From contig AP039697.1 in the NCBI GenBank assembly GCA_051599415.1, positions 372,001 to 436,000 of the forward strand: a DNA stretch of 64,000 bases, written 5' to 3'. Below, in pieces: positions 48,744 to 60,984 of the stretch. The position numbers and the translations under genes were made by a program. The notes beneath the pieces are model-generated. The model worked only from the letters and a program-made list of their open reading frames with translations, did no database searches and had not been told where the DNA came from. Origin of the DNA: Savitreella phatthalungensis. Its lineage: Eukaryota. Positions within the stretch are counted from its first letter, which is position 1; each line of letters begins with the position of its first letter.

Positions 48744-51317
48744 CTACTGCATACCATTCAGGATGCCAACGTCTGAGACGTTGTTTGACATGGTGGGATC
48801 GAATCCCATGTTCATGAATGCTGACATGTCGCTTGCTCCGTTGGGGACGTTGCCCATCAGTCCGATCATTGGATCGTTGCCGGTGTTGTTGGCAAAGGAC
48901 ATGCCGTTCGGGTTTCCGAGCGACATTGGGTCGACACCGCCTAGCATGACATCCGCACCGCTCATCCCGTTCATCATCATGTTGCCATCGAGACCACCCA
49001 TGCCGCCGAGCATCGACAAGTCGTCCATTCCAGCACTTCCTCCCATCATTTCGAAGCTCATGTTGCCGTTGTTCATGCTGCCAGGGTTCAATGATTGCTG
49101 CTGCTGCTGTTGCGGAGTCTGCGGTGGGACAAGGTTAGCAAGCTGAGCCATGTACGTCTGCATTGCGCTATTGCCACCAGCTTGTATTGGCTGCTGACCT
49201 TGGCTCGATGGAGGTCGTCTTTGCTGCTGCTGTTGCTGTTGCATGCCTATCGTATTCATGTTCTGTACACGAGGTGAAGAACTCTGGCCTTGTGGCGGCT
49301 GTTGCTGCTGTTGCTGAAACTGCTGGAATTGCTGCAGTCGTTGCATAGAGTTCATCGCCGGGTTGAAGCCTGCAGCAGCAGCGTTTGCGCCAGCTGCACT
49401 AGGCGACTGCTGGAGGAATTGCTGCATCTGCTGTGGATTTTGTAGGTTGACAGCTCTCGGAATGTTCCCTGGATCTTGTCGTGCGAATGTGTTCATGCCA
49501 GCATTGTTGCCCGCGAGAAATCCTTGACCTGCTGCGGCGGCAGCTTGAGCAGCTGCCATCGCTTGGCGCTGTAGAATCTGCTGCTGCTGCTGAGGCGGTA
49601 TCCGCTGAGCATTCATCTGCGCAACCATCTGTTGGCGCAGCAGCATCTGTTGCTGTTGCTGTGCGATGTACTGCTGGCCTTGAGGTGTTCTTTGCTGCTG
49701 CTGTTGCTGCTGCACCTGCTGCTGCTGTTGTGGTTGTTGATGCTGTTGGCGTGGCGAGGCCTGCTGTTGCTGATGAGGTGGCAGCAGATGCTGGAATTGT
49801 TGAGCCGTTGGCATTTGACCTTGAGCCTGTGGTGTGAATTGCTGAGGTGGAATCTGCGGATGACGGCGAGGACCTTGTTGAACGCTTTGCTGAGGTGTCA
49901 AACGCTGCATAGCCATTTTTTGTTGTTGCTGCTGCTGCTGTTGTTGTTGCTGCTGCTGCGGAAGCATTTGCTGCTGGGCGGCTGGCGACCCACGCATACG
50001 TTGACCCTGTCCCTGCATCTGTGCCTGCCGCTGTGCCATGTTTGGATACGGTGACGCACGCGCTTGTCCCTGCCGAGCCATGGCAGCTTGTCGAGATGCG
50101 TCAAGCGCAGGGGACGCAACTCGCTGATGCTGTTGCGGCATGAGACCTGGCATGCCAGGCGAAGGAGGCATCGGTGATTGTTGCTGTTGCTGCTGCCCTT
50201 GTGGCGGGAGAGGAGAGGGAGCTCCAGGCATGAATGCAGGCGTGCCGCGCTGCTGCTGAGCCTGCAAGAGCTGCAGTTGCTGTTGCTGTTGCTGATGCTG
50301 CTCAGCGATGGTCTGCTGAGCACGGATTGCCTGTGCTGAGCCCGAAGATGGTGGACGTCCGCGCGGCCGAGGCTGCGCTTGTGGTGTTGAAGTGGCAGGC
50401 GACTGCGGTTTCCCTCTCGAGACTTGTCTCGCATGCTGTAAAGCGGGATTCGCTGCACCAGTCGTAGGTGTGGAACCGCGTGCTGCGAGCTTCCCCGCCG
50501 CGGACTGACTTGGATGCTGCTGGTATTGCGCAGATGCTGGTGTTCCTAGAGCACCCGCCTGGTGCGGTGTTCCGTGAGCTCCGATGGCTGGAGACGCAGA
50601 CGGAGGACCTGCAGATTTGCCAGTCGCAATCGGAGGTGGCATGACGCGCGGCATCGCGACAGCGAATAGGTTGGTCAGCCGAACGTAGAATTCCTTCAAG
50701 TCCGAAGCATCCGGAGGTGGAGTCATAATTGTCGGACGTTGCAGGCCACCTGTAGCTGTGATATTGGCTAGAACATTCAAGTTTGCCTGAAGACGGCGGA
50801 TACATGCCTGATAGGCAGCTTGCCGCTTGTTGTCGGCAGCTGCACTAATCGGCTTCTCATTGGTGCTGCCGGCTTCTGCAGAGGACGATGAGATTGGTGG
50901 ACTCTTGAACTTGAGAGATCTGCTGAGAAGTCGTGCGTTGAGCTCGAGCAAGGTTTCCACAATCTCGGACGCAGGGGAAGAGGCCTGTGCCGGCGCTGCT
51001 GGTGTGGGCGGGGTATTTGCAGAATGAGGTGTGGATGAACGGTCATGAGCAGTGCCAGCGATGGGAGAGGCTGTGCCAGTCAATGTCCGTGGAAGTTGCT
51101 GATGCCGTGCTGCGGGAGATGAGCGTGAGGCAGAAGCTGCTACTCCTGCGAGCCTTTGTCGTGGTTTGTGTGCATCAAGGTTGGTCGGCTCCTGCTGCTG
51201 TTGCGGCCTAGCTGCTCCACTCCAGGGACTACCAAGGCCGCCTGTCGCGGCTCCAGCATGGCCAGAATAGCCGTGGTCATGCGAGAGATGGCCAAGCAAT
51301 GCCGGATTGACGTTCAT
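48744..51317 (-). CDS. Q-rich protein with SSXT/SS18-like helical motif (possible SWI/SNF-associated coactivator)
   Basis: 857-codon ORF. LLELNARLL..YQACIRRLQANLNVLA resembles the SS18 N-terminal helix pattern; long Q/P tracts and an M/G/N-rich tail. Confidence 0.6.
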   Translation of the reverse strand: MNVNPALLGHLSHDHGYSGHAGAATGGLGSPWSGAARPQQQQEPTNLDAHKPRQRLAGVAASASRSSPAARHQQLPRTLTGTASPIAGTAHDRSSTPHSANTPPTPAAPAQASSPASEIVETLLELNARLLSRSLKFKSPPISSSSAEAGSTNEKPISAAADNKRQAAYQACIRRLQANLNVLANITATGGLQRPTIMTPPPDASDLKEFYVRLTNLFAVAMPRVMPPPIATGKSAGPPSASPAIGAHGTPHQAGALGTPASAQYQQHPSQSAAGKLAARGSTPTTGAANPALQHARQVSRGKPQSPATSTPQAQPRPRGRPPSSGSAQAIRAQQTIAEQHQQQQQQLQLLQAQQQRGTPAFMPGAPSPLPPQGQQQQQQSPMPPSPGMPGLMPQQHQRVASPALDASRQAAMARQGQARASPYPNMAQRQAQMQGQGQRMRGSPAAQQQMLPQQQQQQQQQQQQQKMAMQRLTPQQSVQQGPRRHPQIPPQQFTPQAQGQMPTAQQFQHLLPPHQQQQASPRQQHQQPQQQQQVQQQQQQQRTPQGQQYIAQQQQQMLLRQQMVAQMNAQRIPPQQQQQILQRQAMAAAQAAAAAGQGFLAGNNAGMNTFARQDPGNIPRAVNLQNPQQMQQFLQQSPSAAGANAAAAGFNPAMNSMQRLQQFQQFQQQQQQPPQGQSSSPRVQNMNTIGMQQQQQQQRRPPSSQGQQPIQAGGNSAMQTYMAQLANLVPPQTPQQQQQQSLNPGSMNNGNMSFEMMGGSAGMDDLSMLGGMGGLDGNMMMNGMSGADVMLGGVDPMSLGNPNGMSFANNTGNDPMIGLMGNVPNGASDMSAFMNMGFDPTMSNNVSDVGILNGMQ

Positions 51318-52713
51318 TTGTGAAATTCAGGACACGGAGGAGTGAACCTGCGGTCGGCGAGAGAGGTCGGATTATGGCGAGATAGGAAAACGATTCGCCA
51401 GATTGATAAGCTCGTCAATGTCAGGTCCGTGTCGGGGCTTGGTGCCGCTCCAGGGCGCAAGCGCGCAGCTTGTATCACGATGAAGGTTAAGCACGGAAGC
51501 TCAAGCGCGGGAATATTTTCGCACGCACACGCGTGTCGGAAAGAGTGGGCGAGACCTGACGATCCAAATCGACAGGACTGCGTGGAAACGTGTCAGGAAT
51601 GTCGCGCGTTTTGGGAAAATACTGGTCAGCAGGTGAAGTGCTTGCACAACGCGTGCTAAATGTCGCCGAAACTTTTCGGCACGTTCCCTGGACCGAACGC
51701 TTACTGCCTTGTAGGGTGGTGGGAGTCTTCGACGTCAGAGGCCGCCAGTACGTTTAGAACGACGCACGGATTGAGACTTGATTCCCTGTCAATATCCAGA
51801 TTGAAGGGCTACGTTCGACCGTCGTCAATGATAGCAACGTGCGTCGCGTCCAATAGTCTGTCGAATTGTTTTGTTATCGACTGCAAAGTGAATGTGTGAG
51901 ATCAAACTCCCGAGTGGATGGGATGAGAAATACTCAAGAAACGCGTGATTGTGTGGATAGTTTGGTAGGGGATGAAGCTGGGGATCGACGGCGCGTCTCA
52001 GTAGTATGACGAAAGAAGCTTGTGAGTAGATCGCCAGGTGGGGCTAGACGATGTAGTGTGGGATGAATGGAGTGTAGGGATGAGGGGGTAGGTGTGCTTA
52101 GGGCGAGTGGGTTGGAAACGAAGGGAAGAGAGGAAGAGGGAAAGGGAAGGAGAGATGTGGAGACAGACGAATCGACTTGGAAGAGGGAAGAGAAAGAGAT
52201 GTAGTGGACCTGGCTTCCGGTTACGGAGTGGATATGTGAAGGGGGATGACAGATGTATGGGATGGAAAAGATGGACAGCTGGATTGATGGGTGGGGGAGA
52301 TGGTGGATCGGAGACTGGGTTAGGTAAATGGATGGACACTATACCTGTTGACAGGTATGGATGACAGCTGCTTGATCGTCCCACCCTTGCCTCCAGCACT
52401 AATGAGGATTATTTGATTCCAGATGGAGTGCACAAGATGCTATGCGCACACGCAAGAGCGAGGCGAGGCGAGTGAGCGAATGAATGAGTCCAGTCTTGGG
52501 TGTAGACCTCTAGCTTGCTGACTCCCGGATTGACAGGGCGTAGTCGCGCGAGCAGGGTAGACAAACGCCTAGGAAAGCAGACGGGTAGCCAGGCAGACAG
52601 GGGCGTTGGAGTGCAGGCGCTGTGATGCGGACGCGCGGACACAGTCGCAGACGCGGGGTAGGGGTTCTGCAGGTGTTTGGTTGTGGATGTGGATGTGGAT
52701 ATGGTTGGGTGAG

Positions 52714-52740
52714 AGGAAGGAAGGAAGGAAGGAAGGAAGG
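52714..52740. repeat. (GAAG)n microsatellite
   Basis: About 6.5 copies; reads as a pyrimidine tract on the minus strand. Confidence 0.85.
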
Positions 52741-53666
52741 GTATGATGGGACGATCGATAAGTTAGAAGTGAAGGAAGGAGGAATCAGGGCTGTGTTGTC
52801 GGCCGAGTGCGGGACTCGTCATGACAAATCTTGATTCGTCCATTCGACAGTCAACGCTAGAAGGTAGTCTAATTCATTTCTAAAACTAGCCTGAGTAGAG
52901 GAGAAAGCGCAATTCATCAGAATTGATAAGGTCAATTATTATATACTTATTACAAGACAGTCGCCTAAATCTGAGATTTGTCCATCTTCTTCTTCTTCTT
53001 CCACTGCTTCATGTGCGAGATATCAAAATATCCTTGACCTGCTCTAGATTGCAACGCATATCTCGTTTCGCAGAAGAATCGGCTGGCGTTCGAGATCAGA
53101 TTATACCTACTGTAGATTCACGTTCGCCTGGAATTCTCATGGTCAAGCGTCAGATGAAGAGAATGACGAAGTTTGGTAATAATCCCAGAGACTATACTAA
53201 TCTTATTTGAAACAGAAGAAAATTATAAGCAATTAGACTGGTCACAAGCCATGTGTATCTGAGATCTGCTGAATCCTACCACAAGCGGATCTTTTCATTC
53301 TACCTGACACCATCATGTTTCATCGTCTTGCTCGAGTAAATTGACCTGGGGATCTGATCCAAGTCAATTTGAGTCTCAATGTTTCGAGTAGATTGTGAGT
53401 TTGGATCATCGCCTGAGTCAAACACCTTGAGCACGACTACCTTTGGCAGATCGATACGCCTGTCGCGTTGCTCCAGCAGGACGGTGGACAATAGTCGACG
53501 AATACTGTAGATGACTTGAAGACATGAATCTATAGCTGGTCATGCGATCCCCGTTGTTTCTGTGGCTTCACTACATGTACTGGCCATTCGCTTCCAGTCG
53601 CACCTCAAGTTACAGCTGCACCTCTACTCGTTGAGCACTAGCAGAGAAGATATTCTGGACGTGCCG

Positions 53667-53704
53667 TGCTATTCTTTGCTATTCTGTGCTATTCTGTGCT
53701 GTTC
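53667..53704. repeat. 10-bp tandem repeat (TGCTATTCTG) x~4
   Basis: Direct reading of the sequence. Confidence 0.75.
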
Positions 53705-54144
53705 CACTCTGTTCTGTCCTATTCCCATATGAACTTTTTCGATGCGCATGTTGTGCTCTGAGATCCTGCATAGTCCTGCCCTTAACTAGTCTGCGTCAAT
53801 CGATTTGCATCAGGAGACAAGTGCTCAAACAAGAGACTTGATGTTCGATCGAATGCACGCTCTGGATCATGCCCGTCCACCGCGATGTACAGATCTTTTT
53901 GGTCAGCTGGTTGGCGTTCTATGAGACAATCAAGTGACAAGATGTCCTGCGCGAGAAGCGTACGCTTCCGGTATTGCCTCAAAACGTGCACTCATAGCGC
54001 ACGGGAAGTTTCCCGTCTTCAAGCTTCATGAGTGCTTGTACTCATACGATCAGGTCCTTATGTCGTGCAGACAAGGATTACGCCCGCGCGCGTCACGCAT
54101 CGCTTGTCGAAAGATAGTCACCCCAAGCCAGGATACAGGGAACT

Positions 54145-55437
54145 ATGATGTGCCTCTTGTTTCCGTTCGTTGCACTATCTCTAGCGGCGCGAAACACAGC
54201 TACCTGGCTCCTCACTACAGGCAGGAGTCAGAGACAATTCGAAGAGCTCCTTCACCCATCAATCCGTGGCTCGATTCTCCCGAGCAGACAATGGCAAACC
54301 ATGGGAGCTATTGAGCTACAATTCACTACATCACGAACAGCTATAGAAAGCCTCCGTCGTACTCGAGGGATCAGAATTGAGATCGACTCTGTGGTCGAGG
54401 CTGACTACAGACCAGATGAGCTCGGTGAGACTACCTGGGCTTTACAACGTATCTCGCACCCTGAACCGATTTCCAAATGGCACTACCAAGATGCTACCAG
54501 AACTTCCTGGACTTATGCATACGAGCGTTACCACCTCGGTTTCGGAACTGAAATTTATGTGCTCGATGACGGCGTATTTTGTGATCACCATGAACTAGAA
54601 GGCAGGTGCTTGGCACCACCAGGATTAGATGTGACATACAAGCGGCATAAAGATCAACATCATAATCATCAGTATGACGATGAGGATCGTGCCCAGACCG
54701 ACGGCGCAGACAGGCATGGCCCAGATCGACCGCATCCGCAGCCGAAAGATACACACGGCACCTGGTGCGCAGCAGCAGCTGCAGGAAATGGCATCGGCGT
54801 GGCTGCAGCAGCGACGGTCATCTCTGTTCAGACTGAGCGAGAGGGAGGAGTTCGCGTGATGAGTGATCTGGTTGCTGGCATCGATAGCATCCTGCAGAGA
54901 CTCGGGAAGCATAACAGACCCGCAGTCATTTCAGCCTCGGTCAGCTCCAGAACGGGCCAGAGTCAGGCTCTCGACAACGCTGTGGAAGCAGCGCTCGCTA
55001 GTCTCGTCCCTTACGTCGTGTCTGCGGGCAACACGAACGTCGATGCATGCACGCAATCACCACATCAGGTGCATGGAGCTATTGTCGTCGGATCTACCGA
55101 CATACGCGACAGATTCGCTCGATTCTCATCGTGGGGAAAGTGTGTGTCCATCATGGCACCTGGCGTCGATGTCATCACAGCAGCTTGGAGTGCAAAAGAG
55201 CCAGAGATAAAGGACCTTTACGAAGTTACTAGTGGGACAAGTCTCAGCACAGCGTACGTGGCTGGGGCAGTCGCCATCGCGCTAAGCATGATGCCACACA
55301 AACTGAACTCGATAGAGTACATGGCTCCATGGCTGCAAAAAATGTCACTCAAGGGTGCTATCAAGAGCTTGCCTCCACTGACGCCTGATTATCTCCTGCA
55401 AACGACGTTCTCACAGCACGAAGCAGCAGATTCCTGA
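54145..55437 (+). CDS. Secreted subtilisin-like S8A protease, array copy 1
   Basis: Signal peptide, WALQRIS, YVLDDG (Asp), HGT (His), SAGN, SGTSLST (Ser). Confidence 0.9.
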   Translation: MMCLLFPFVALSLAARNTATWLLTTGRSQRQFEELLHPSIRGSILPSRQWQTMGAIELQFTTSRTAIESLRRTRGIRIEIDSVVEADYRPDELGETTWALQRISHPEPISKWHYQDATRTSWTYAYERYHLGFGTEIYVLDDGVFCDHHELEGRCLAPPGLDVTYKRHKDQHHNHQYDDEDRAQTDGADRHGPDRPHPQPKDTHGTWCAAAAAGNGIGVAAAATVISVQTEREGGVRVMSDLVAGIDSILQRLGKHNRPAVISASVSSRTGQSQALDNAVEAALASLVPYVVSAGNTNVDACTQSPHQVHGAIVVGSTDIRDRFARFSSWGKCVSIMAPGVDVITAAWSAKEPEIKDLYEVTSGTSLSTAYVAGAVAIALSMMPHKLNSIEYMAPWLQKMSLKGAIKSLPPLTPDYLLQTTFSQHEAADS

Positions 55438-55685
55438 GGTGAATCGGTCTCAGCCGCTTTCAAAAGCATGCGAATCCCAAACATTCCATCTGCGGCTCAT
55501 TCTTGTACTAAGGCGGCCAATTGGATGCGCAGCTAACGCCGCAATGAATCACTTCATTGGAGCATGATCTACGGAATTGAGATGATGATGCGCACGCGGG
55601 GTGAGTCACGAGCTAAGCACGTTGATGTGGTACGTCCAAGTTATAAGTATCCTCCAAGATCTCCTGGACAGGCCGATCAAAGTTC

Positions 55686-56945
55686 ATGCTCCTGTCGTAC
55701 CCTATCGTGCTAATCATCGGCGGCGTGCTCGCCGGTGGATCAAGCTCAAGCTGGATCCTCACCACAGCCCGACATCCTACGCCGGTCGAAGAGCTGCTCC
55801 ATCCGAGTCTGGCCAAGCGCAGTCTAGACTCAATAGAAGACAGACTCTCCGTCATCAACGGACTCGTCTTGACGCCAGACACGCCTGCAAGCGTCCTCAA
55901 TTCTGTCGACGCTCAGAGAGGCGTCCGACTCCATCGAGATGTGGTCATGCAGCTCGACGAACTCCGCGAGAGAGAGCACACAGGCTGGGGACTACAGCGT
56001 ATCAGCGATTTTCAACCCATTCCGCCCGAACTCAGAAGCTCGGCTAGAAATTCAGGGTTCGTCTATGTCTACGATGACAAAGCTGCAGGCAAAGGGGTCG
56101 AGGTCTATGTCATCGATAGTGGTATTATGTGTGAGCACATCGATTTTGAGGGTCGAGCGGAGTGTCCAAATGAGGGAGACATGACAGAGAAAGACCCGAA
56201 GAAACAATCGAACCAGCCAATCGAGGGTCATGGAACCGCTATCGCCTCTGTCATCGGTGGTGTAAACTTTGGAGTTGCCCCTGACGCAAACCTTATCTCA
56301 GTCAAGGTGCTCGATAAGGACAACACCATTCAGGGCAAGACAGTGATTGCGGGCATTGGATGGGTTTTGGATAACGTCGATCCACGCTGGCGCGCGCTCA
56401 TCAATTACTCCGGCGGTATTGTCCCTAACCCCGACCATGTTTACCAGGAGAACGAGCCAATCGACCAGGCTGTTCAGGCTGCCCTCGCAAAAGACGTCCC
56501 TTTTATTACGGCGACATACAACGAGCCCCTCAATGCATGCGTTCGTCCACCGGCCAAAGTTGAGGGTGTCATCATCGTATCGAGCTCAGACGTCAACGAT
56601 AAGTTCGATCAGAGCGCTGGTCGCGGCAGCTGTGTGACACTCATCGCACCTGGCGTCGATATTGTCAGTGCATCATTTGATCCTGCGCATCCTGAGATTG
56701 TCGATCTCTGCCAATCGACCCATGGAACTTCACTCGCCACTGCGTTTGTCTCTGGCGCTGTGGCTGTGTACGCCAGCATGCCTTCGACCAAGGACAAGTG
56801 GAAGGGGTCCCTGATAGCAGCATTCCTGCGTAACACCGCAGCGAAAGCGGTCGTTCAGGGTATTCCCCGAAACATTCCTGAGCGTGTGGGCACTACGCCG
56901 AATTTCCTGCTCCAGACGACCTTCTCACACTGGCGCCACGGCTGA
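55686..56945 (+). CDS. Secreted subtilisin-like S8A protease, array copy 2
   Basis: Signal peptide, WGLQRIS, YVIDSG, GHGT, ATYN, HGTSLAT. Confidence 0.9.
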   Translation: MLLSYPIVLIIGGVLAGGSSSSWILTTARHPTPVEELLHPSLAKRSLDSIEDRLSVINGLVLTPDTPASVLNSVDAQRGVRLHRDVVMQLDELREREHTGWGLQRISDFQPIPPELRSSARNSGFVYVYDDKAAGKGVEVYVIDSGIMCEHIDFEGRAECPNEGDMTEKDPKKQSNQPIEGHGTAIASVIGGVNFGVAPDANLISVKVLDKDNTIQGKTVIAGIGWVLDNVDPRWRALINYSGGIVPNPDHVYQENEPIDQAVQAALAKDVPFITATYNEPLNACVRPPAKVEGVIIVSSSDVNDKFDQSAGRGSCVTLIAPGVDIVSASFDPAHPEIVDLCQSTHGTSLATAFVSGAVAVYASMPSTKDKWKGSLIAAFLRNTAAKAVVQGIPRNIPERVGTTPNFLLQTTFSHWRHG

Positions 56946-57127
56946 TGGCAGATCACGCGCAACTTAAGCCTGGTCAGGGCACTAGGTCAGCCGCGCAGCT
57001 GATAAGGTGTCGCCGACCGCAACGAGCAGTACACCAAAGTCCGTCATAGCAGCCTAATCATCAGAAGCAAGCTCTAGGTTCGCTCTCCTACTGCAAATAT
57101 ACTCTATCTGGCGCCTAGTCAAGGCTA

Positions 57128-58264
57128 ATGGATTGGCTGCTGAGTGGACCTCGCGGCAGCGTGTCGTCTCTCCATTCCAGCATTCGGATTAGTCTGGAAG
57201 TCCCATTCAGGTGGGACGAGATTGGCGTGCTCCAAATCCCGTCGACGACGCCTTCCTCACTCTTATTCGGTATCGCTGCACATCGCGGCTTCAAGCTCGA
57301 ACGAGACATCTACAACCATGTCGAAGCGCCTCGACAGGAATGGCCGCACGCGACCTGGGCACTAGAACGGATGACGAGCGACTCACCTATCGCACAGGAT
57401 CGTCGTGGCGATCCGGCCAAGCTTTCCTTCACATACGCCTGGCAGGAAGAAGCGCTTGGAGAGTCTGTCGACATCTATGTGCTCGACTCCGGAGTCCTGT
57501 GTGCGCACGAGCAATTTCTCGGGCGCGCATTGTGTCCACTCGAAGCAGTACACAACGGCGAGGTTCCTCCAACGATCATCCCGACCTCGCCGCATGGGAC
57601 AGGCGTCGCCAGCGCTGCGATGTCGGTCACGTTTGGAATGGCGAAGAAAGCGACGATTTTGTCAGTGAAAGTAGTCGACCCAGAGCTCCGAACTCCTACA
57701 AGCCAGGTCCTCCGGGGTCTCCGTTGGGTACTGCGCGAGGCTACAATGACGCGGCGCCGAAGATCCATCATTAACATCTCCCTCGGCGCACGCTCACAAG
57801 CAGATGCGTACGACCGCGCCATCACGCACACCATCAGAGAGATCAACATCCCAGTCATCACGTCCGCTGGCAATGGTGGCGGCGAAGCTTGCGCACACTC
57901 CCCGAACTCGGCCGATGGGATCATCGTGGTGTCCGGTAGCACGATCGAGGATACCTTCTATGATCGCAGCAACCACGGTCATTGTGTGTGTGTGATGGCG
58001 CCCGCTCATCACGTTGTCGTTGCCTCCATCAACGTCGATCAGCTGGACGACTTCAGGTATGTCGCCCAGCTGTCCGGCACCTCCGCCGCCGCAGGATACG
58101 TCTCCGGCATCGTCGCCATCATGATGTCCTGGCCAGAAAGACCCCGGATCAGGGCGGCCGAGCTAGAACACTGGCTGCAGAACGTTGCTTCCGAAGGCGT
58201 CCTCTTAGGCGTACCACCTGACACGTCAAACTACCTCGCTCGAGCTACCTTCCAATTCTCATGA
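57128..58264 (+). CDS. Subtilisin-like S8A protease, array copy 3, no in-frame signal peptide
   Basis: WALERMT, YVLDSG, PHGT, SAGN, SGTSAAA. In-frame TAG at 57116-57118 just upstream of the ATG. Confidence 0.8.
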   Translation: MDWLLSGPRGSVSSLHSSIRISLEVPFRWDEIGVLQIPSTTPSSLLFGIAAHRGFKLERDIYNHVEAPRQEWPHATWALERMTSDSPIAQDRRGDPAKLSFTYAWQEEALGESVDIYVLDSGVLCAHEQFLGRALCPLEAVHNGEVPPTIIPTSPHGTGVASAAMSVTFGMAKKATILSVKVVDPELRTPTSQVLRGLRWVLREATMTRRRRSIINISLGARSQADAYDRAITHTIREINIPVITSAGNGGGEACAHSPNSADGIIVVSGSTIEDTFYDRSNHGHCVCVMAPAHHVVVASINVDQLDDFRYVAQLSGTSAAAGYVSGIVAIMMSWPERPRIRAAELEHWLQNVASEGVLLGVPPDTSNYLARATFQFS

Positions 58265-58711
58265 GCGAACGTGGAGTGACCTTTGATTACATCGAGATCA
58301 CGCGTCCCATGGTGTGCCGTGTCGTTTGGCCTGGATGTGTCGCGTGCTCTCGATCACGGACCGACCGACAGACGGCGAGTCCGAACCCACCGCGAAGTAT
58401 GCAAACGTGGCGGCGAGGACTTGCCCCGAATGGGTTATGCAGACGTAACCCAAATGCTCTTTCCTTATCATCAAGGCATGTCTCAGCCAGAAGACGTGTT
58501 GCGTCCGGCGGTCGTGCTCGCTCCCAGAGTCAGACAGACATATAGAGTAGGAAAGGAAGCTCGCGTGACTACGGGCAGATGCGAGAAGACTTCTGAAGAG
58601 CTACGCACCGAAGCAGATCACTTCCGAGCCTAACAGTGCTGCGACTCTGCTTCATACGATAAGCAACAGATACTACTGTCTTAGCCGCGGTCTGCAGATG
58701 TCTAGGCGACG

Positions 58712-59929
58712 ATGAAATTTGTCTTATTGGGCCTGTTGGGATGTGCTGCGAAGGCTACGGCGAACCATCATGGGTGGATCGTCTCGACCACCGGCAGGCG
58801 TCTCGAGACTTTCCTCCACCCGCACTTTGCATCTGTGGCGGATGAGAAGAGGAAACAATGGAGTCTGCTACCGAGCGAGATCTCTCAGACGGTCCTGGCG
58901 TCACTCCGGCGGCATCGTGGCCTCAGGATGGAGGAGAACGTGCTGGCGCACCTGGACGAGCATCGCATCCTCTCCCAGACGTCGTGGGCACTCGAGCGGA
59001 TCTCCGACGCCGATTCCATACCGGCTTCCCAGCGAGGCGACGTCTACAAGGCGAATTTCATGTATACGTACGACGACAGTCACCTCGGCGCTGATGTCGA
59101 TGTGTACATCGTGGACACTGGAGTCTTGTGCGCGCACGTTGATTTCGGAGGGAGGGCATATTGCCCTCGGTCCGGGGTGATGGCAAAGGGGACTTCGACG
59201 AACCCGTCTCCTGGGGCTTCTCACGGGACCGAGATGGCGTCGGCAATCGGTGGCAACATGTGGGGTGTCGCAAAGGCGTGCAACCTGATCTCCATCAAGG
59301 TCATGGACAACGACGGCAACATCCCGCTGAGCAACATTCTGGATGCCTTCCACTGGGTCGGCTTCCAGGTCGAACACAATGGACACCGTCGCAGCCTCAT
59401 CTCCGTCTCGCTCGGCATCAAAGTCCAGAGCTCTTTCTGGAACACGCTTGTGGAATCGACAATCGGGATTCACAGGATCCCCGTCGTCACCTCCGCAGGC
59501 AACACGGCCTCTGATGCGTGTGGATCGTCGCCAAACTCCGCAGAGGGCATCGTCGTCGTCGGAGGCACGCGGATCGATGACACATTCATGCCGCTCAGCT
59601 CGCGCGGCAGGTGTGTGACTGTGCTTGCGCCGGCGGAGCATCTTATCGTTGCGTTCGCAGGTCAGAGCGTTTACGAGAGATCGTTCGTCCAGCTAAGGAC
59701 GGGAACTTCCCATGCAGCAGCATACACCGCCGGCGTCCTGGCGATTCTCCTCGCCATGCCATCGATCCCAAACCCGCTCAGAGCAACGCGGATCGGAATG
59801 CTGCTACAGCAGAACAGTCTCCAGAACGTCATCACAGGAATCCCAGACGACTTCCCCGGCACCCCAAACTACCTCGTCCAGAGCACATTCTCCCTCGGCA
59901 GTCAGGCAGCGCAAGCATTGAAGATGTAA
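58712..59929 (+). CDS. Secreted subtilisin-like S8A protease, array copy 4
   Basis: Signal peptide, WALERIS, YIVDTG, SHGT, SAGN, TGTSHAA. Confidence 0.9.
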   Translation: MKFVLLGLLGCAAKATANHHGWIVSTTGRRLETFLHPHFASVADEKRKQWSLLPSEISQTVLASLRRHRGLRMEENVLAHLDEHRILSQTSWALERISDADSIPASQRGDVYKANFMYTYDDSHLGADVDVYIVDTGVLCAHVDFGGRAYCPRSGVMAKGTSTNPSPGASHGTEMASAIGGNMWGVAKACNLISIKVMDNDGNIPLSNILDAFHWVGFQVEHNGHRRSLISVSLGIKVQSSFWNTLVESTIGIHRIPVVTSAGNTASDACGSSPNSAEGIVVVGGTRIDDTFMPLSSRGRCVTVLAPAEHLIVAFAGQSVYERSFVQLRTGTSHAAAYTAGVLAILLAMPSIPNPLRATRIGMLLQQNSLQNVITGIPDDFPGTPNYLVQSTFSLGSQAAQALKM

Positions 59930-60180: not shown

Positions 60181-60984
60181 ATGCCGATCAACCAGCCGTC
60201 TAATCAGATCAAGCTGACGAACGTGTCTGTGGTGCGGTTGAAGTGGGGAGGAAAGCGGTTTGAGCTTGCGTGCTACAAGAACAAGGTGCTTGAATGGCGG
60301 AGTGGTGTGGAGAAGGACATTGACGAGGTGCTCCAGATCGAGAGTGTTTTCACGAACGTGTCGAAGGGTGCGGTGGCATCGAACGAGGATGTGAAGAAGG
60401 CGTTCGGGGACAAGTCGCGGGAGGACGTGGTCCAGGAGATCCTGAAGAAGGGAGAGCTCCAAGTAGGCGACAAGGAGCGAGGCGCGATGACAGGCACCAT
60501 CCACAAAGATATCGTCTCCATCATCTCAGACAAGACGGTCGATCCGCGCACGCGGAGACCCTACACGACCGGGATGATCGACAAGGCGCTCGCAGAGATT
60601 GGGTTCAGTGTCGGGACGACAAAGAGCGCAAAGTCTCAGGCGCTCGACGCTATCAAGATGCTCCAGGCGCAAGGCACGATCCCGATCGAGAGAGCGACGA
60701 TGAAAGTCAGGGTGACGTGTCCGCTGTCGAACCTGACGCTGCCGAAGGGTGGTGCAGCGCCTGGCGGAGACTCGAAGAAGGTCATCAAGGATCTATTGAG
60801 GGGCCACTTTGTGAAAGTGGACGACGACGACACAATCGGTGGAGACTTTGTCATCGAGGGAGACATCCAGCCTGGATCCTTCAGGCAGATCACAGACCTC
60901 CTTAGCGAGGCAACCAAGGGTAAAGCACAATGCGAGGTTCTCAATTTCTCCCAATCGACTGAAGGCGATGAGACATGGTCGTAA
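60181..60984 (+). CDS. SDO1: Ribosome maturation factor SBDS/Sdo1
   Basis: MPINQPSNQIKLTNVSVVRLK.GGKRFELACYKNKV, VFTNVSKG, ILKKGELQV, KSAKSQAL. Confidence 0.97.
   Translation: MPINQPSNQIKLTNVSVVRLKWGGKRFELACYKNKVLEWRSGVEKDIDEVLQIESVFTNVSKGAVASNEDVKKAFGDKSREDVVQEILKKGELQVGDKERGAMTGTIHKDIVSIISDKTVDPRTRRPYTTGMIDKALAEIGFSVGTTKSAKSQALDAIKMLQAQGTIPIERATMKVRVTCPLSNLTLPKGGAAPGGDSKKVIKDLLRGHFVKVDDDDTIGGDFVIEGDIQPGSFRQITDLLSEATKGKAQCEVLNFSQSTEGDETWS

Follow-up and report, generated by a model that had tools for sequence, protein, structure and literature searches.

The 64,000-nucleotide stretch of contig AP039697.1 that we analyzed (referred to below as the window) contains a tandem array of four genes coding for subtilases, none of which has the methionine that canonically follows the catalytic serine. 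The question that this locus raises is whether this methionine was replaced under selection for peroxide resistance, or whether its absence is one aspect of a wider change of the active site. We favor the second answer: the four genes are probably paralogues of long standing, members of a small subfamily of proteinase-K-like enzymes (MEROPS S8A) that evolves fast. In this subfamily, the helix with the catalytic serine is remodelled at its start, and an additional pair of cysteines is present just past the catalytic aspartate.

Gene structure and fold

The four open reading frames (ORFs) are read in the same direction:

54145-55437, forward strand: copy 1 (c1), predicted S8A pre-pro-protease ORF of 430 amino acids; D141, H204, N296, S366; GTSLSTAYVAG at nucleotides 55234-55266
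55686-56945, forward strand: copy 2 (c2), ORF of 419 amino acids; D144, H182, N279, S349; GTSLATAFVSG at nucleotides 56724-56756
57128-58264, forward strand: copy 3 (c3), ORF of 378 amino acids; D120, H156, N249, S319; GTSAAAGYVSG at nucleotides 58076-58108
58712-59929, forward strand: copy 4 (c4), ORF of 405 amino acids; D135, H171, N264, S333; GTSHAAAYTAG at nucleotides 59702-59734

These ORFs contain no internal stop and are separated by spacers of 248, 182 and 447 bp. Each of them matches the Pfam family Peptidase_S8 (E-values of 2.7e-30, 2.4e-30, 7.3e-25 and 1.6e-21 for c1 to c4; 106.1, 106.3, 88.3 and 77.3 bits, for a cut-off of 21.8), and the Pfam scan (E ≤ 0.01) detects no other family in the four copies. 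There is no Pfam match to the P (Homo B) domain of the kexins (S8B) in any of them, and the proteins stop soon after the catalytic domain, about 25–50 residues beyond the Ser helix. The catalytic columns, defined as those occupied in 161 related S8A domains by D (160 domains), H (160), N (159) and S (159), contain these four residues in all four copies, and c4, aligned residue by residue to ver112 (3f7m) and aqualysin (4dzt), has the same catalytic residues. In c2, the oxyanion region reads TYNEP in place of SAGN.

A preliminary description of this DNA had proposed four co-oriented S8A ORFs with a full set of Asp, His, Asn and Ser, on which Pfam, the catalytic columns and the residue alignment now agree; the four Ser motifs that it gave read exactly as described, the residue after the catalytic Ser (position 222) being L, L, A and H in c1 to c4. 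We also concur that the genes are intronless, because their reading frames run colinear with proteinase-K-like chains of known structure, on which the c2 model superposes.

The closest sequence matches in the PDB (E 4e-26 to 1e-20) are ver112, aqualysin, the Aspergillus alkaline protease and proteinase K. The AlphaFold2 model of c2 (predicted local distance difference test, pLDDT, 89.5; predicted template modelling score, pTM, 0.81) superposes on proteinase-K-type chains with Z of 41–43 and a root mean square deviation of 1.4–2.0 Å over 274–282 residues (model residues 90/94–413), those at Z 43 having 1.4–1.7 Å over 276–282 residues, and Foldseek gives E 2e-27 for the comparison of this model with proteinase-K-type structures. 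The nearest relatives are proteinase-K-type both in sequence and in structure, which places the copies in the proteinase K subfamily of S8A. They share with it the fold, the order Asp, His, Asn, Ser, about 25–36% identity, the cysteine pair of N..DAC / G.CV, which aligns with the same two cysteines of aqualysin, and the C-terminal motif G-T-x-N-x-L; three Cys positions are conserved across the four copies. In their fold and their catalytic residues, these are still ordinary S8A proteases: the diverged subfamily is new, the kind of enzyme is known.

One peculiarity of c1 is a low-complexity, His/Asp-rich insertion of about 38 amino acids (residues 165–202, nucleotides 54637–54750) between the catalytic Asp and His. 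It is missing from c2–c4. In two proteins of Savitreella phatthalungensis, P0119 and P0145, this loop also contains long insertions, which are unrelated to that of c1. The c1 insertion may bind metal, or form a disordered loop on the protein surface.

Distribution and age of the clade

A profile of the four copies was used in an exhaustive HMMER search against 1.84 billion representative sequences, which returned 123,833 matches at E ≤ 0.001, the best 150 of which were examined. The tree input consisted of 181 domains from 153 proteins, each with at least 100 bits and at least 200 profile positions, weaker domains being dropped. In the FastTree phylogeny, the four copies and 16 other domains form a clade of 20 rows (support 99). 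The IQ-TREE phylogeny (41 rows, 275 columns, LG+C20+F+G4 with posterior mean site frequencies, PMSF), whose bootstrap was not fully settled (correlation 0.948), recovers this clade with 21 rows, P0156 being added, and separates it from the rest of the proteinase K subfamily with support 98/99. The median end branch in the clade is 1.43 changes per column. Every one of the 16 clade members that come from outside the window and lie among the best 150 matches carries the name of S. phatthalungensis; the 17th Savitreella member is P0156, which has the same type of Ser motif. P0156 comes from a word-index search with a profile of 20 sequences, limited to 8000 candidates, whose only Savitreella matches were P0048 and P0156; a word-index search with c4 alone returned c4 itself and three distant proteins. 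The account of this species in PMC8877625 presents it as a Taphrinales yeast from healthy pineapple leaves, with no symptoms on the leaves tested.

Some of the Savitreella members are located on single contigs and have consecutive accessions (BFZ54105/06/08/09 and BFZ57715/16/17), which suggests that the clade genes of this yeast also lie in tandem clusters. The match list itself is headed by long proteins, because the scores of their two or three S8 domains add up; an assignment to NLR- or gasdermin-linked S8 domains was considered for these and rejected, Pfam showing two or three S8 domains, I9, fn3 or EGF.

We found no published description of the subfamily, the fungal subtilase groups "new 1–6" of Muszewska et al. 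(2011) being outside the comparison. As judged from these sequence comparisons, the array belongs to a subfamily of proteinase-K-like subtilases that is undescribed, strongly diverged and restricted to one lineage, since its members come so far only from this genome and from S. phatthalungensis.

The array is old and does not result from a recent local burst, because the copies are only 32–37% identical and their likeness at the DNA level is confined to four patches of 22–42 nt (64–82% identity) over conserved motifs. Neither long DNA repeats nor inverted repeats were found in the array, and nothing in its DNA points to a mobile element or to gene conversion. An origin by recent duplication or by conversion between the copies was considered and rejected, given that only these short patches are shared and inverted repeats are absent. 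The preliminary description of a lineage-specific, locally expanded family therefore holds as far as lineage restriction is concerned, all non-window members being from Savitreella, but not if the expansion is understood as recent.

Regarding the relations among the copies, c3 and c4 are sisters in the IQ-TREE phylogeny (97/94), while c1 groups with c2 and the Savitreella protein P0009 (88/95), the latter two forming a pair (92/77). The maximum-likelihood tree thus places P0009 with c1 and c2, against the monophyly of the array on which the preliminary description relied, and the four copies are together in none of 200 bootstrap trees. However, the best tree in which all four are united is not rejected by the approximately unbiased (AU) test (difference in log-likelihood 6.9, p 0.374), so that monophyly is neither shown nor excluded. 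Since c2 is as similar to P0009 (35% identity) as it is to its array neighbors (32–35%), the duplications appear to date from roughly the time at which the Savitreella lineage split off.

Remodelling of the serine helix

The residues that follow the catalytic Ser were counted in the 20 clade domains and in the 161 related S8A domains outside the clade:

Position 222: clade L8, F3, M3, A2, H1, P1, Y1, I1; outside M126, Q12, F9, L7, six others
Position 225: clade G10, A9, P1; outside P148, A11, G2
Position 226: clade Y7, L6, F5, M1, V1; outside H130

The clade has G-T-S-x-[AS]-x-[AG]-[YF] or, Leu being included, G-T-S-x-[AS]-x-[AG]-[YFL], where the proteinase K subfamily has the canonical G-T-S-M-A-x-P-H; the four copies all lack Met222, Pro225 and His226. 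The hallmark of the clade is wider than the absence of Met: the loss of Pro225 and His226 is clade-wide, while residue 222 is free to vary. The loss of Met appears to have been inherited along with the remodelling of the Ser helix, rather than being a special adaptation of the four copies. Two other features set the clade apart from the proteinase K subfamily. The mature N-terminus has W-A-L where relatives have W-G-L, and a Cys is present five residues past the catalytic Asp in 18 of the 20 clade domains, with a second one, in G-R-A-x-C, in 16 of the 20 (3% outside the clade in either case). This additional pair probably forms one more disulfide.

Met222 had been called highly conserved, which is true in a relative sense (126 of the 161 outside domains, 124 of which have Pro225 as well), but 35 of the 161 lack it. 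Surveying the residue after Ser thus shows that residues other than Met are in part common in ordinary S8A enzymes: besides these 35 domains, kexins have Ala at this position, according to section 7 of PMC5371821, and PCSK9, which reads SGTSQAAAHVAG after its catalytic Ser, has Gln at the Met site and no Pro. We also note that P0175, a protein from Paramyrothecium foliicola that is AsES-like by name and falls outside the clade, reads GSSLAVAHIAG, with neither Met nor Pro.

The first interpretation to be weighed is that selection for resistance to hydrogen peroxide (H2O2) led to the replacement of Met, the products being peroxide-tolerant secreted proteases of a plant-associated fungus that faces the oxidative burst of its host. 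We consider it unlikely. It would account for the absence of Met after Ser from all four copies, given that H2O2 inactivates subtilases by oxidizing the Met beside Ser, as stated in the relevant passages of PMC3135529, and that the M222A substitution abolishes oxidation, as stated in those of PMC9126251; it also agrees with the origin of Savitreella, so far the only other holder of the clade, from pineapple leaves, and with the fact that the nearest named match of the SDO1 gene of the window is from Protomyces (65% identity). However, residue 222 is not fixed as an oxidation-proof one, since L, F, A, H, P, Y and I all occur and Met is kept in 3 of the 20 clade members, and oxidation leaves the joint loss of Pro225 and His226 unexplained. 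In addition, Met is missing from the 35 outside domains mentioned above, and the same passages of PMC3135529 indicate that natural oxidant-stable proteases retain Met beside Ser. The host burst itself is not evident, as the leaves on which Savitreella was tested in the experiments that PMC8877625 describes showed no symptoms of disease. By analogy, peroxide tolerance is plausible in biochemical terms; as a selected trait it is so far unsupported, and so is the oxidative-burst scenario. Since residue 222 varies and Pro225 and His226 are lost, a relaxed or specificity-driven change is a better fit than selection in favor of a single residue that resists oxidation.

A second interpretation is that the products are not bulk proteases: they could perform limited processing or binding after self-cleavage, like PCSK9, or be secreted recognition or elicitor proteins whose effect is independent of turnover. 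PCSK9 belongs to the proteinase K subfamily and is among the solved relatives (Z about 36), and it resembles the clade in having neither Met nor Pro after Ser. In the part of PMC6988430 that concerns it, the fungal subtilase AsES is reported to elicit plant defense independently of its enzymatic activity, and P0175 is the homologue named after it. There are also several Savitreella members in which catalytic residues are lost, which shows that the scaffold is kept without catalysis. On the contrary, D, H, N and S are kept in all four copies, which lack an additional C-terminal domain such as the Cys/His-rich one of PCSK9; PCSK9 itself keeps His226, and the PCSK9-like protein P0049 is outside the clade in the trees. 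We therefore regard this interpretation as quite improbable for the array.

Among the Savitreella members concerned is a cluster formed by P0045, P0052, P0142 and P0145 (consecutive accessions BFZ54105–54109), in which the catalytic Ser is gone and, for some of the four, Asp, His or Asn as well. They are apparent pseudo-proteases that seem to be kept as open genes.

Processing, function and genomic context

The N-termini of c1, c2 and c4 are signal-peptide-like (Kyte–Doolittle hydropathy of the best N-terminal 10-mer of 2.58, 3.05 and 2.57, respectively), as are the hydrophobic N-termini of many Savitreella clade members, so these three products would be secreted; residues 1–17 of the c2 model have a pLDDT below 50. 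The public gene model of c1 (P0007, 378 amino acids) begins at Met53, and the ORF from 54145 is longer by the stretch 54145–54303. This added part contains a signal-like stretch and the motif W-L-L-T...E-L-L-H-P-S, which is common to the other copies, and for this reason the upstream start (54145) is likelier than Met53 and the public model looks truncated.

Between the signal peptide and a W-[AG]-L-x-R-I-S motif, c2 has a region of about 75–80 residues, with equivalents in the other copies:

55740-55985, forward strand: probable diverged I9-like propeptide of c2 (residues ~19–100), from the secondary structure of the model

The model shows a succession of strand, helix, strand, strand, helix and strand (E23–27, H34–47, E50–54, E59–62, H68–75, E80–84; pLDDT of the block 75–92), which we take to be the layout of subtilisin I9 propeptides. 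A look-up with a protein language model, which is a lead only, returns Inhibitor_I9 as the best named Atlas clusters (score 0.90, 11 of 30 matches). The region that precedes W-[AG]-L-x-R-I-S is thus probably a diverged I9-like propeptide, and would function as such.

It may be argued that some or all of the copies are redundant and drifting towards loss, the odd Ser motif reflecting relaxed constraint. The lost signal peptide of c3, the low-complexity insertion of c1, the long branches across the clade and the catalytically dead Savitreella members would be expected in this case. We nevertheless find it very unlikely, since four ORFs of 378–430 codons have stayed open at 32–37% identity while keeping all catalytic residues and the three Cys positions, and since the model of c2 is confident. 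A second sample, whose contigs (2–3.5x depth, about 95–99% alike) cover parts of c1–c3 and the flanks, points in the same direction: of the 10 listed differences in c1–c3, 7 are synonymous and 3 conservative (V/M, E/D, P/S), 13 further ones being unlisted, and the 4 listed differences in SDO1 are all synonymous. Frames that are open across this divergence and differences that are mostly synonymous are weak evidence of coding constraint on the copies.

Before the function of the array is considered, its flanks should be described. On the right side is a gene for ribosome maturation, followed by genes for an rRNA-processing protein and a GH16-like protein:

60181-60984, forward strand: SBDS/SDO1 ribosome-maturation gene (Pfam SBDS_N, SBDS_domain_II, SBDS_C), outside the array

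The nearest named homologue of this SDO1 is that of Protomyces lactucae-debilis (65% identity), other contigs reaching 74–76%, and there is no named Savitreella protein among its best 120 matches. By this measure, the organism is related to the Taphrinales but stands fairly isolated. On the left side, 2.8 kb (51318–54144) have no ORF over 133 amino acids and contain some low-complexity sequence; they are preceded on the reverse strand (48744–51317) by a glutamine-rich ORF of 857 amino acids without Pfam match. The CAG/CAA repeat in this ORF (about 49690–50300) draws contigs from unrelated runs, with joints and loose ends in all three runs. The array was first depicted as an island among housekeeping genes, which is fair for the right side (SBDS/SDO1, rRNA-processing protein). 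In an Rfam scan of the whole window, none of the families attained the gathering score.

Our favored account is that each gene product is a pre-pro-enzyme, which would consist of a signal peptide (in c1, c2 and c4), a diverged I9-like propeptide and a catalytic domain whose Ser helix is remodelled at its start. By analogy with engineered subtilisins, the copies, having no Met222, would not be switched off through a Met222 sulfoxide, and H2O2 could not inactivate them by that route. The relevant passages of PMC9126251, which deals with subtiligase, indicate that Met222 and Tyr217 shape the P1' site, that M222A alters P1' handling, and that P225A eases crowding at the nucleophile, Ala and Gly being the only residues tolerated at position 225 in active variants. 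The S1' pocket would therefore differ from copy to copy according to residue 222, and the products may be secreted endopeptidases of differing cleavage preference. That residue 222 is variable, and that Pro and His are lost in association with it, speaks for a broader change in active-site geometry or specificity.

Several observations weigh against this account. First, c3 is the sole copy without a signal-peptide-like N-terminus (best 10-mer 0.86). Its ORF begins right at the D-W-L-L motif that the copies conserve, the ATG being preceded at a distance of 9 nt by an in-frame stop (57116–57118), and no upstream hydrophobic exon was found in the 182-bp spacer, where a lone ATG, read by eye, leads to a non-hydrophobic peptide and a stop; c3 would thus be outside the classical secretion route, or decaying. 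Second, the putative propeptides have diverged from those of the proteinase K subfamily to the point that Inhibitor_I9 has no Pfam match in the four copies at E ≤ 0.01, and hhalign matches the region only weakly to canonical propeptides (E 0.0032, probability 9.9%, 40 columns). Third, the catalytic residues are incompletely kept in the clade (of 20 members, 18 have D, 19 have H, 14 have N and 16 have S), the losses being in Savitreella members, so that catalysis is not always what the clade maintains. Last, the distribution of the clade is based on the best 150 matches of one search: P0156, with 169 bits, is itself outside them, which shows that weaker members can escape, and weaker members from Taphrina, Protomyces or other fungi would likewise go unlisted.

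It is useful to compare the enzymes of the array, as we interpret them, with those in which the same positions have been discussed. Engineered subtilisins (M222A/S/L, and subtiligase S221C/P225A) are changed at the same two positions, and residue 225 of the clade is Ala or Gly in 19 of 20 domains; the clade members differ from them in being natural enzymes that keep the Ser nucleophile, on the backbone of another S8A subfamily. The oxidatively stable proteases (OSP) of Bacillus and some fungi are also discussed for H2O2 resistance. According to the passages cited above, they keep Met beside Ser and form a separate, heterogeneous group (PMC3135529), and the fungal ones often have a galactose-binding-like domain (PMC5371821, section 7), none of which is detected by Pfam in the four copies.

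A bolder view is that nature has produced in this clade a counterpart of the engineered subtiligase-type active site, with Ala or Gly at position 225 and a free choice of residue at position 222, which lines the P1' site. It would have evolved beyond bulk hydrolysis, towards sequence-selective processing or transpeptidation of secreted peptides or towards catalysis-independent binding like that of PCSK9, in which case the paralogues and the dead Savitreella members could form a diversifying repertoire for recognition at the leaf surface. We mention it as a long shot.

As for the significance of the array for these fungi, section 7 of PMC5371821 reports that yeast-like fungi, including Taphrinomycotina, have few proteinase-K-like genes, and against this background a clade of at least 17 Savitreella members in addition to the four copies is an unusual expansion. 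Its Ser helix is changed exactly where engineers remove oxidant sensitivity and shift the balance between hydrolysis and ligation. Naturally occurring variants at these positions (L, A, H, F, Y and I at position 222; A or G at position 225) are thus available in the clade, and the way in which the positions set stability and P1' specificity may be probed with them.

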